This document shows, one piece after another, positions 2,819-44,026 of a stretch of DNA of 47,087 nucleotides. The DNA comes from a virus (lineage: Duplodnaviria > Heunggongvirae > Uroviricota > Caudoviricetes). The stretch lies in IMG/VR virus record IMGVR_UViG_2718218131_000001. The stretch is one strand, 5' to 3'. The position numbers and the translations under genes were made by a program. Within the stretch, counting starts at the first letter, position 1. Each line of letters begins with the position of its first letter. A model generated the notes under the pieces. That model was given only the letters and a program-made list of their open reading frames with translations. It was not told where the DNA came from and did not search any database.

Positions 2819-5441
<2,623 letters not shown>

Positions 5442-6377: not shown

Positions 6378-6453
6378 TGAACAAGTCCCATGTCGGCAAG
6401 CATAAGCACACAGAATATGAAGCCTGCTGCCAGAAAAATGCATTCTGTTGTTG

Positions 6454-8779: not shown

Positions 8780-8912
8780 TTTTTGGGACTCCTGGCTGAT
8801 TAAGTATGTCGATAAGGCGTTTCCATCCGTCACGTAATTTACGGGTGATTCGTTCAAGTAAAGATTCGGAAGGGCAGCCAGCAACAGGCCACCCTGCAAT
8901 GGCATATTGCAT
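8748..8912 (-). CDS. cIII: Protease inhibitor CIII
   Basis: 54-codon ORF below the track cutoff, overlapping kil in another frame; reads [54 protein letters not shown]; coordinates set from the track-supported frame. Confidence 0.55.
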   Translation of the reverse strand: MQYAIAGWPVAGCPSESLLERITRKLRDGWKRLIDILNQPGVPKNGSNTYGYPD

Positions 8913-8984
8913 GGTGTGCTCCTTATTTATACATAACGAAAAACGCCTCGAGTGAAGCGTTATTGGTATGCGGTAACGCAGCGC

Positions 8985-17456: not shown

Positions 17457-17641
17457 ACGCCACAATTCAAACGATACCAGAGCTTCTTATCCATACACGA
17501 GGCAATCAGACCGAAGTGGCAAGGATGCTTTCCTGCGCAAGAGGAACAGTGCTCAAGTACAACCGAGACAGCAAAGGCGAGCGTCATGTAATAGTTAACG
17601 GCGTCCTGATGGTCAAACAGGGCAAGAGGGGAAGACGATGA
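17453..17641 (+). CDS. ninH: NinH-like protein
   Basis: 62-aa ORF ...GNQTEVARMLSCARGTVLKY... parallels lambda NinH. Confidence 0.6.
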   Translation: MNATIQTIPELLIHTRGNQTEVARMLSCARGTVLKYNRDSKGERHVIVNGVLMVKQGKRGRR

Positions 17642-18261
17642 GACTCGAAAGCGTAGCTAAATTTCATTCGCCAAAAAGCCCGATGATGAGCGACTCACCA
17701 CGGGCCACGGCTTCTGACTCTCTTTCCGGTACTGATGTGATGGCTGCTATGGGGATGGCACAATCACAGGCCGGATTCGGTATGGCTGCATTCTGCGGTA
17801 AGCATGAACTCAGCCAGAACGACAAACAAAAGGCTATCAACTATCTGATGCAATTTGCACACAAGGTATCGGGGAAATACCGTGGTGTGGCAAAGCTCGA
17901 AGGAAATACTAAGGCAAAGGTACTGCAAGTGCTCGCAACATTCGCTTATGCGGATTATTGCCGTAGTGCCGCTACGCCGGGCGCAAGATGCAGAGATTGC
18001 CACGGTACAGGCCGTGCGGTTGATATAGCCAAAACAGAGCAGTGGGGGATAGTTGCTGAGAAAGAGTGCGGAAGATGTAAAGGCGTCGGTTATTCAAGAA
18101 TGCCAGCAAGCGCCGCATATCGCGCTGTGACGATGCTAATCCCAAACCTTACCCAACCCACCTGGTCACGCACTGTTAAGCCGCTGTATGACGCTCTGGT
18201 TGTGCAATGCCACAAGGAAGAGTCAATCGCAGACAACATTTTGAATGCGATCACACGTTAG
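17638..18261 (+). CDS. Q: Late-gene antiterminator Q
   Basis: 207-aa ORF MRLESVAKFHSPKSPMMSDSPRATASDSLSGTDVMAAMG... matches lambda Q including zinc-finger cysteines. Confidence 0.95.
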   Translation: MRLESVAKFHSPKSPMMSDSPRATASDSLSGTDVMAAMGMAQSQAGFGMAAFCGKHELSQNDKQKAINYLMQFAHKVSGKYRGVAKLEGNTKAKVLQVLATFAYADYCRSAATPGARCRDCHGTGRAVDIAKTEQWGIVAEKECGRCKGVGYSRMPASAAYRAVTMLIPNLTQPTWSRTVKPLYDALVVQCHKEESIADNILNAITR

Positions 18262-18303
18262 CGCCATGATTGCCACGGATGGCAACATATTAACGGCATA
18301 ATA

Positions 18304-18332
18304 TTGACTTTTTGAATAACTTTGGGGAAACT
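18304..18332 (+). promoter_or_regulatory. pR' late promoter
   Basis: TTGACT-17 nt-GAAACT directly downstream of Q; aligns with the recalled lambda pR' (TTGACT...TAAATT); similarity to lambda ends just after it. Confidence 0.5.
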
Positions 18333-18540
18333 TGACACCAATAATGGGCGTTTTTTACATGTCATTGATGAGTCTCAATAACCTGCCGCCGAGTAGTTTT
18401 TATGCTCTGAATTGTATTTGTGTAGTAAACATGCTGACTGCAATGTAATAGAGTTTTTTTAGCCTGTAACCTCTTGACGGCATTGAATTGCTTTTGTTAT
18501 GAGTTGTAAGCCAATGTTATCATCTTGTATTGGGGTGGTT

Positions 18541-19011
18541 ATGAAGGATGGTGCGCTGCTCAGGAGTTCTTCACTTTTTATTGCCTACATGGGATGCCTT
18601 GGATGGGGGAGTGCTTATTTCTATGGATGGGGTACTTCTTTTTACTACGGCTTCCCATGGTGGATTGTAGGTGCAGGTGTTGATGATGTTGCCAGAAGTT
18701 TATTTTTTGCAGTTATCGTCATTGCTATATTTCTTATCGGTTGGGGTATTGGTGTTGTATTCTTTTTCGCAGTGAAAAGAAAACATTCTATGCAAGAGCT
18801 AAATGTATTTCGCCTTTATTTTGCTGTGGAATTATTGTTTGTGCCGGCAATTATTGAGTTTTCTATATTGAGACAGAAGATTCAGGTACCTCTTTTGCTA
18901 CTGTCAGCAGCGATTGCGCTGGCGGTTACAATTTCGATAAGATCTTATGGGCGATTTTTATCGGTATCATGCTTCTATGATAAGCCATTTATAAAAAAAA
19001 CATTTTTTTGA
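18541..19011 (+). CDS. Multi-pass membrane protein (W/G/F-rich), first ORF of the pR'-proximal cassette
   Basis: Track ORF 18499..19011; start placed at ATG 18541 with GGGGTGG upstream; about 4 predicted TM helices; very AT-rich. Confidence 0.5.
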   Translation: MKDGALLRSSSLFIAYMGCLGWGSAYFYGWGTSFYYGFPWWIVGAGVDDVARSLFFAVIVIAIFLIGWGIGVVFFFAVKRKHSMQELNVFRLYFAVELLFVPAIIEFSILRQKIQVPLLLLSAAIALAVTISIRSYGRFLSVSCFYDKPFIKKTFF

Positions 19012-19015
19012 GATT

Positions 19016-19210
19016 GTGATGATTGCTTTTGTGGCATATTTCTGGCTTTTTTCATTTCTGACAGGATATTACAAACCACAGTTTAAGAAAGAATATGAAA
19101 TGATTAATTATAATGATGGTTGGTATTATGTTCTTGCTCGTTATGATAATTGTCTGGTTTTGTCTACTTCTTTCAATGCAGGTAGTAAAAGGTTTGTCAT
19201 TTATCAATAA
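19016..19210 (+). CDS. Small hydrophobic protein, possibly the displaced C-terminus of the upstream membrane protein
   Basis: 64-aa ORF starting 5 nt after the upstream stop, +1 frame; one hydrophobic helix; joins the upstream ORF if the A8 tract at 18993..19000 loses one base. Confidence 0.4.
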   Translation: MMIAFVAYFWLFSFLTGYYKPQFKKEYEMINYNDGWYYVLARYDNCLVLSTSFNAGSKRFVIYQ

Positions 19211-19688
19211 GCACAAGATAAGAATCTTCAGGTTGATATTGTAAGGACCAGAATTTAATTGGCTGCATAAATAATATTTTAAGTTGCAAGTTGGCTATTC
19301 GTAGGAATAGAACCTTAGGCATGCTGAATGCGTTTTCTGAACATTGTTTTATAAACTGTGTCTGCTTGCTGTTGTGATCCTGCTTTTAGTGATGGTGATG
19401 ATGGATTTCACCAGCAGGATAATGTTGGTACTGACTGATGGCGCTCTGGTCTGCGGCATTGTGGTATTGCTGTGGCCGATGATGAAAGAACAGAATGAAT
19501 AATTCTTGACTTTTTTGTTTACTGTTTATTAAAAAATCAACCGCATGGTGAATCCTCCTTGGAGGGGCTAAATGATCGAGTTTTAAGGGCACGTAGCGAG
19601 TTCTGTTTGATCATTGCAGAACTTAGCGGGAGGCGCCATGCGTACATCACTAATGTTATTTCCTTCTATCATTTTCCTTGTGAGTTCT

Positions 19689-19715
19689 GGCTGCGCATGG
19701 CGCGGCCTTTTTTTT
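19689..19715 (+). terminator. Strong rho-independent terminator in the late leader (tR'-like position)
   Basis: 8-bp GC-rich stem GGCTGCGC / GCGCGGCC with one G-U pair, followed by T8. Confidence 0.6.
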
Positions 19716-20123
19716 ATGACCTGCCACTGGCAGATGGTCATCCTGTGATTTGATTCCGGTTCCGGCTTTTTAACTCTGTTCCTGTACACGGGAGAAATTC
19801 TATGTCGATTAATCGTTATGATATTGGTTACAAGAAGTACCACGTATTGTGTTGAGATAGAAAGCATGGTGCCAGAGGTAAATGCAGCAGCATAATAAAA
19901 AAGAGCCAGCGCAGAAGAGAACGGGTAAAAGAGTCTGCGCTGGCGTGGGGATATTCCCCGTGGAGAAATGATATGTAACACACATCGGGAACCTTTCTAT
20001 ATAAACATTATCATTATTGTCAATCATAACAGTCAGGTATTATGACGTTTATGCATCAGGGCCATCAGGAATTAACTGGTGGCTTTTTATTGTTGTCAGC
20101 TTCCGGATAACGGGAGACGGGGT

Positions 20124-43626: not shown

Positions 43627-43832
43627 TTGTCATGTCATGGTGATGTTTGTTAATGAAGTTAAATTTATTTTGGCTTGATAATGGAGTCTTATCTTTTGCA
43701 AGACTGATAATGGTGTGTGAAAGCATTGTGATAAGTAGGATGCTTCAACAGGAAATCAAGTAAAATGTTAATGAAGTTAATGGGGGTTTTATTATGCCAA
43801 TAAATTTAACACCATATCTAACAGTGCAAAAT

Positions 43833-43952
43833 GGCATCTGAATCGATCGCAGTTTGGCATTCGAATCGATCATGATTTGGCATCCATCTCCGATCACAGT
43901 TTGGCATCACAATCGATCACGATTTGGCATGCTTCCGATCATTGATTGGCAT
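43833..43952 (+). repeat. Six tandem ~23-bp repeats (GATCAC-GATTTGGCAT type) at the IS left end
   Basis: TTTGGCAT recurs with a 23-bp period at 43837, 43860, 43883, 43907, 43930 and 43952; inverted copies at 46395..46448; typical of multiple transposase-binding sites in IS21-family ends. Confidence 0.6.
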
Positions 43953-44026
43953 CCTGCCAGTCACTCCGGGAATTAACTCTTTTCACCACAGTCTCCATTG
44001 CCGTGTTTAAACCAGTGGAGACGTCA

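Follow-up and report, generated by a model that had tools for sequence, protein, structure and literature searches.

A prophage gene for a TfpB-family membrane protein, probably inactivated by +1 expansion of an A7 run and carrying a second nonsense lesion

A stretch of 47,087 nucleotides of Caudoviricetes DNA (IMG/VR virus record IMGVR_UViG_2718218131_000001; this whole stretch is henceforth referred to as 'the window') contains two short consecutive open reading frames (ORFs) for membrane-protein sequence that adjoin at a homopolymeric A-run, which raises the question of whether they are two small genes, one gene that is switched or recoded at the run, a gene broken by mutation, or an intact gene misread during sequencing. 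Our analysis indicates that they derive from one prophage gene for a membrane protein of the TfpB family (PF27470), which has probably been inactivated by the +1 expansion of an A7 run and which carries a second, nonsense lesion. The features described between 18265 and 19715 lie on the plus strand unless otherwise indicated. The A8 run, the only one in the window (two T8 runs occur elsewhere in it), occupies positions 18993-19000 and is followed by CA and then by T7 at 19003-19009. The upstream ORF ends ...FIKKTFF at a TGA stop (19009-19011) and comprises 156 amino acids (aa) when counted from ATG 18541, 165 aa from ATG 18514 (the start used by the Prokaryotic Genome Annotation Pipeline, PGAP) or 170 aa from ATG 18499 (the start in the ORF list), whereas the downstream ORF runs from GTG 19016 (64 aa) or ATG 19019 (63 aa) to a TAA at 19208-19210. 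Removal of one A or one T yields an unbroken frame, ...FIKKHFFEIVMIAFVAYFWLF..., of 222 aa counted from 18541. A previous reading made from the letters alone (henceforth the sequence-only reading) had described the A8 and T7 runs, the 156-aa ORF ending FIKKTFF-stop and, upon removal of one A, a frame of ~222 aa running into the 64-aa ORF, and we find each of these in the sequence. We did not count the lengthening of a frame by a single-base change as evidence in its own right: when a +/-1 change was applied to each homopolymer of at least 6 bases in the window, the outcome was non-specific, with chance fusions of adjacent genes at several sites.

Comparison with relatives supports the view, considered most likely by the sequence-only reading, that the two ORFs are halves of one gene. 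In phage 434 (CPT_434_68, UMO75332.1) and E. coli O26:H11 (WP_001302581.1), whose copies are the same gene at ~98-100% nucleotide identity, the run is A7 and the gene is a single ORF of 247 aa as annotated, or of 238 aa from the methionine equivalent to 18541; since all orthologues start at that methionine, the choice of 18541 as the start is supported. A fused ORF is likewise present in ~667 of 679 complete genomes and in all diverged full-length members of the family. Two alignments, of 20 and of 49 sequences, have invariant or near-invariant residues flanking the break, among those downstream of it being F172, Y175, F176, W177, F179, S180, G184, Y186, K187-Q189, K191, Y204, Y205, L216, S217 and F227. 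The 1817-base segment from the Q gene to the holin gene is 100% identical to NZ_CP148474.1, in which PGAP annotates a single coding sequence (CDS) marked 'frameshifted', and the extra A is the sole insertion or deletion (indel) relative to intact copies across the 1.8-kb alignment. The indel is confined to a mononucleotide run, where intact alleles have A7, and in the +1 frame it leads to the premature TGA stop. No orthologue was found that keeps two genes with ribosome-binding sites of their own, and we rejected two separate genes because the split is kept in no orthologue. The N-terminal fragment (18541..19011) carries a precomputed Pfam PF27470 match on an identical 165-aa product. Members of that family are single polypeptides of ~237 aa, whereas the copy in the window is split at codon ~163 and truncated at codon 232, and is therefore a pseudogene of the PF27470 family.

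The TAA at which the fused frame ends is itself a lesion. The sequence-only reading had the fused frame end at 19210, which is true of the sequence, but overlooked that the TAA there is a rare nonsense allele (TCA to TAA, changed at 19209): nearly all relatives have TCA (Ser) at 19208-19210, and intact relatives run 16 codons further, to the original stop at 19256-19258. The last 16 residues, which are conserved C-terminal residues of the family, are lost, and their codons persist, no longer translated, as what is left of the ancestral 3' end (19211..19258; ...SAQDKNLQVDIVRTRI plus the original stop), which we mapped from the end of the O26:H11 CDS and whose tail is conserved in the family alignment. 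The length of ~222 aa is thus correct for the fused frame of the window but, owing to this second lesion, underestimates the ancestral protein, which is 238 aa from the same start. Because strains with the TAA and an A7 run exist (231-aa product), the TAA appears to be older than the extra A. We envisage that TCA was changed to TAA first and that a single A was then added to the A7 run in this lineage, most likely through replication slippage. The run lies within the codons ATA-AAA-AAA, which would specify Lys-Lys of the loop before transmembrane (TM) helix 5; the frame shift would lead to a stop seven codons past the start of the tract and cut off TM5 and the C-terminal beta domain, so that the C-terminal fragment (19019..19210 from ATG 19019, or from GTG 19016) would hold the predicted TM5 and most of the beta domain, and loss of function would be the probable outcome. 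The gene is most likely an ordinary slippage pseudogene, already annotated in RefSeq, and not a new mechanism: as in other homopolymer pseudogenes that PGAP marks 'frameshifted', a single-base indel in a mononucleotide run breaks a conserved CDS, and both the identical sequence and alleles with an A6 run are flagged in RefSeq. The sole extra here is that length changes affect both of the neighbouring runs, A7 and T7, with several of the alleles recurring. The two small ORFs are best annotated as one frameshifted pseudogene, not as two novel small membrane proteins.

How common such alleles are can be seen in public genomes. Among complete E. coli genomes bearing the segment, the run was exactly A7 in 667 of 679, A8 in 2 of 679 and A6 in 16 of 681, and alleles that put the gene out of frame (OFF alleles) make up ~3%. 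We also counted contigs with the exact product of each allele in a collection of 15 billion proteins. Intact A7T7 alleles were represented by at least 1000 contigs for the 247-aa form and 918 for the 238-aa form, and A7T7 with the TAA (231 aa) by 26 contigs. The allele of the window, A8T7 (...FIKKTFF), was found on 18 contigs, its product being indexed in 28 blocks of the collection, and the exact 63-aa C-terminal product on 4 contigs. Other broken alleles were A6T7 (...FIKNIFLRL; 289 contigs), A7T8 (...FIKKHFF; 30 contigs), A7T6 (...FIKKHFLRL; 20 contigs), A6T6 (...FIKNIF; 6 contigs), and A9T7 (...FIKKNIFLRL) and A8T8 (...FIKKTFFLRL), with 1 contig each. Six genomes with A6 represent at least three haplotypes, and PGAP marks the gene 'frameshifted' in all six. 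Since A6, T6 and T8 alleles exist besides A8, the A7-CA-T7 pair, of which the T7 run (19003..19009) is the second slippage-prone member, is by all appearances a recurrent indel (slippage) hot spot across E. coli prophages. This hot spot is the source of numerous spurious 'partial' or fragment entries among database proteins. A 79-aa C-terminal fragment has been called as a gene of its own on 411 contigs, and the frameshift alleles, which sum to ~365 contigs, account for most, though not all, of these calls; the same alleles explain why the N- and C-terminal fragments have separate PHROG families.

Several further allelic forms were observed. The A6 allele of strain CAU16175 (NZ_CP047378.1) has an extra single-base insertion ~140 nt downstream, equivalent to window position ~19137, which brings the total length back to 744 nt without restoring the reading frame through the early stop, and which could reflect either continued decay or an error in the assembly. 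Two proteins (P0115 and P0152) represent alleles with in-frame tandem duplications, one with three extra copies of the 11-residue AYFWHISGIFL in TM5 and another with the 8-residue GSAYFYGW of the conserved N-terminal motif doubled. For another protein (P0106), 264 contigs stop at the same point ~30 nt past the tract, giving 'partial' 172-aa products that end ...EIVMIAF, which suggests that divergence between multi-copy prophages or heterogeneity of the tract systematically breaks short-read assemblies near the site. Many enterohaemorrhagic E. coli (EHEC) genomes carry the gene in two or three copies, and the hot spot may help to cause breaks in assemblies.

Is the A8 run of the window itself real? 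If the strain truly carried A7, the extra A would be a homopolymer miscall by sequencing or assembly and the gene would be intact apart from its truncation by the TAA; we consider this unlikely. All ten A8 loci that we fetched (one genome of the National Collection of Type Cultures, NCTC, three metagenome contigs from ENA and six contigs from Logan assemblies of SRA data) read A8T7, and these independent contigs include metagenome assemblies with short-read-style names (k119_ and k141_). They fall into eight single-nucleotide polymorphism (SNP) haplotypes and carry Q genes of two families. An independent SRA assembly (L010) aligns to the window without gaps along 4600 nt, differs from it at three positions there, and contains both the A8 and the TAA. 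Moreover, in a related complete genome with A8, no frameshifted CDS was found in a 50-kb sample of the core genome, and the two other frameshifted CDS of its prophage contain no runs longer than 5 bases. From these comparisons we take A8 to be, most likely, a real slippage allele that recurs. Against this interpretation, and against that of an inactivated gene, stand the following points. The only two complete genomes with A8 share one sequencing project, although they have two different haplotypes, and A8 could in both of them be a project-specific artefact; the diversity of A8 haplotypes could in part stem from recombination between prophages rather than from independent mutations. At the level of expression, the C-terminal fragment could be translated by re-initiation at ATG 19019, and the A8 run may permit rescue at a low level, whether through transcriptional slippage or through tRNA-Lys slipping by +1.

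If such expression had a purpose, the locus would be a case of programmed recoding, in which ribosomal frameshifting or transcriptional slippage supplies the full-length protein, or of two genuine genes whose small products act separately. An A8 run is able to support some transcriptional slippage, and in one eukaryotic A8 case full-length product amounted to about a tenth (cited in PMC1088944); tRNA-Lys could slip by +1 on AAA-A, and ATG 19019 sits only 8 nt past the stop, which makes re-initiation conceivable. However, the frameshift is not conserved, nearly all orthologues being in-frame, and no strong Shine-Dalgarno sequence precedes the second ORF. The A_AAA_AAA heptamer favours a -1 shift, which would lead to a stop within a few codons (...KKNIFLRL and then the stop), whereas fusion of the two ORFs requires +1 or -2; folding of the RNA past the tract is no more stable than that of shuffled sequences (z = +1.13) and no Rfam family matches at the tract. 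We rejected programmed -1 frameshifting as a path to the fused protein, given its wrong direction and the lack of a stimulator. As neither a conserved frameshift nor a slippery site in the right phase and direction with a stimulatory element was found, we regard recoding, or two genuine genes, as extremely improbable. In the intact A7 allele (L002 and L006; window 18990-19011), A_AAA_AAA is in phase for -1 ribosomal slippage, and the predicted -1 product, ...FIKKTFF-stop, is the same protein as that of the A8 allele; since the heptamer is absent from diverged orthologues and is not accompanied by a stimulatory structure, its presence is probably incidental.

A different question is whether the A7-CA-T7 pair could be a contingency switch that turns the membrane protein reversibly off and on within populations. 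Envelope proteins of accessory slots are a gene type that is often phase-variable in other bacteria, and the product here is an envelope protein from a prophage accessory slot. As in simple-sequence contingency loci, ON and OFF alleles lie one base apart within an in-frame homopolymer of the gene, and tract length is polymorphic between isolates (A6, A7, A8, A9, T6 and T8), with variants in both directions, in both runs and on several backgrounds. Unlike in such loci, the tract is short, is not kept across orthologues and has rare OFF alleles, which are a small minority of complete genomes. The sequence ATA AAA AAA CAT TTT TTT occurs only in the 434/O26/2B8 clade, and diverged members of the family have, for example, ATT CGT CAG TAC CGG ATT or GTC AGA AAG CAT AAC CTT at the orthologous position. 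The gene is AT-rich (GC 0.36), such that runs of this kind are expected from composition; the orthologues (GC 0.35-0.42) contain other A/T runs of 6-8 nt at non-homologous positions, and because of this the runs look compositional. The A7 run is also shorter than the ~nine nucleotides at which selection tied to slippage becomes evident in many bacteria (PMC1088944). The compensated in-frame combinations A8T6, A6T8 and A10T7 were not found in the protein collection, and the copy in the window bears a second, non-reversible lesion. Adaptive phase variation is, on this evidence, quite improbable. The sequence-only reading had left open inactivation by mutation, phase variation and sequencing error; of these, mutational inactivation is best supported, phase variation lacks support, given that orthologues do not conserve the tract, and an error is unlikely, the allele being shared by independent assemblies. 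We would also give little credence to a more speculative scenario, in which the A7 and T7 runs serve as a low-frequency switch of a prophage envelope protein in pathogenic E. coli, OFF variants are repeatedly selected (for example, by escaping a cost or phage or immune pressure) and the truncated ...KKTFF protein is perhaps a normal minor -1 product of the A7 allele.

What, then, did the inactivated gene encode? Its product belongs to the PF27470 'TfpB' family and is a protein of the inner membrane, ~238 aa long, for which five TM helices and, at the C terminus, a small beta domain are predicted. The repaired protein gave 104 protein matches, all of them PF27470, with E-values reaching 1e-158 and, among relatives of 45-68% identity, a coverage of 96%; these full-length relatives of ~237 aa occur in E. 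coli, Shigella, Citrobacter, Cronobacter, Klebsiella, Enterobacter, Salmonella and Yersinia. An exhaustive profile search returned 71 clusters at 50% identity and added diverged full-length members in Neisseria and Pasteurellaceae. A local Pfam-A scan of the repaired protein gave no match, PF27470 evidently being newer than that library, and membership rests on precomputed annotations, which cover the relatives and also the 165-aa fragment of the window. The repaired protein had no match in PADLOC or NCBIfam, and a literature search on 'TfpB', tciA/tciB and Moraxella tfpB found no source for the name 'TfpB' used in Pfam. In Moraxella, tfpB is probably a pilin-region gene related to TfpY/FimB; it was given no weight as evidence here. 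Common to the family are the N-terminal motif GWGSAYFYGWG..FYYGFPWW and the C-terminal region YKPQFKKEY...WYYVLARY; the copy in the window differs from its members in being broken.

In an AlphaFold2 model built from 49 sequences (mean predicted local distance difference test score, pLDDT, 62, which is moderate; positions refer to the 247-aa form), helices are predicted at 12-44, 56-88, 93-120, 125-148 and 164-190, and a five-stranded beta domain at 193-244. The first four predicted helices are encoded in the N-terminal fragment, and TM5 and the beta domain are lost through the frameshift. The distribution of charged residues suggests an N-in topology, which would place the Lys-Lys of the A-run on the cytoplasmic side, in the loop preceding TM5, and the beta domain in the periplasm. 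Fold searches with the model were uninformative and assigned no function. In size and layout the protein resembles the TfpY/TfpZ/FimB-like type IV pilin accessory proteins of 235-245 aa, in which N-terminal TM helices precede a beta-rich C-terminal domain, in the case of TfpY-like proteins three helices and a domain predicted to be periplasmic (PMC11841053), and distant PF27470 members do occur in piliated Neisseria and Pasteurellaceae. However, the PF27470 protein has five predicted helices rather than three, and in the contexts examined its gene never adjoins a pilin gene; the link to TfpY/TfpZ/FimB is a resemblance only.

Within what is a lambdoid prophage, the gene has the Q antiterminator gene and the late promoter on one side and the lysis genes on the other. 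Just past the Q gene (17638-18261) is a putative pR'-like late-promoter and qut-like region (18265..18348, with TTGACT at 18305), identified by an annotation match: positions 4-87 of a query spanning window 18262-20078 are 90-92% identical to segments of HK97-like phages annotated 'promoter / similar to lambda Qut site', from which a late-promoter/qut function may be inferred. Because the membrane-protein gene sits just past this region, it occupies a late-operon 'moron' slot. Downstream of it is an intact partner gene (19344..19502) for a 52-aa DUF3927/TciB-like small membrane protein (Pfam PF13064, E=3.4e-14; phrog_1470), and a terminator-like GC-rich hairpin with T8 (19689..19715) closes this small accessory module; phage 434 has an annotated terminator in this region, past TciB, which we matched to the hairpin by position, not by alignment. 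In phage 434 and O26:H11 the gene likewise follows Q and the late promoter and is followed by the DUF3927/TciB-like gene; their copies, with A7 and TCA, encode one protein, whereas that of the window, with A8 and TAA, is split and truncated. Around the hairpin the annotations conflict, PGAP having a 132-aa hypothetical protein at 19583-19981 on the minus strand; the curated phage 434 record has instead, on the plus strand of the region that corresponds by position, not alignment (window 19559-19753), a 'putative membrane protein' of 63 aa and, after it, a terminator. The sole Rfam match in the window is a Lambda cIII thermoregulator RNA (RF01804, 88.5 bits) at 8867-8925 on the minus strand, and no tRNA genes were found in the window.

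Relatives of the gene occur in prophage late regions and near LpxR, heat-labile enterotoxin (LT) and Bor genes, neighbours that would fit an accessory role in lysogenic conversion or at the envelope. PF27470 members repeatedly adjoin the lipid A deacylase gene lpxR, in varying order and orientation (L006, which is phage 434, L008, L011, L013, L020/L021 and L022/L023), in one case at a non-prophage chromosomal site in Citrobacter rodentium, which suggests a possible functional or mobile-cassette link. A 59%-identical member (P0044; L018/L019), which is very common among public assemblies (1285 blocks list it), lies ~0.9 kb from the heat-labile enterotoxin A/B genes and adjoins an insertion sequence (IS) transposase. 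The intact gene thus belongs to a small, uncharacterised family that recurs in lysogenic-conversion slots and beside envelope and virulence genes (LpxR, LT toxin, Bor and the slot used by Shiga toxin (Stx) phages), and it may merit functional study.

The pseudogene is a decaying one, in a prophage with IS insertions and other broken genes: the prophage of the close relative NZ_CP148474.1 has two further frameshifted CDS besides its IS elements. In the window, ISSso4 (IS21-family) is located at 43825-46463, apparently within an nleG-like effector gene, and by coordinate conversion a copy of IS100 lies at ~3.6-5.4 kb (about 3574-5375). NZ_CP148474.1, whose prophage is nearly identical in other respects, has the ISSso4 between the capsid and decoration genes, and it also has an IS3 element that is missing from the window at ~6401-6405; such differences between prophages so closely related suggest that IS elements have moved recently.
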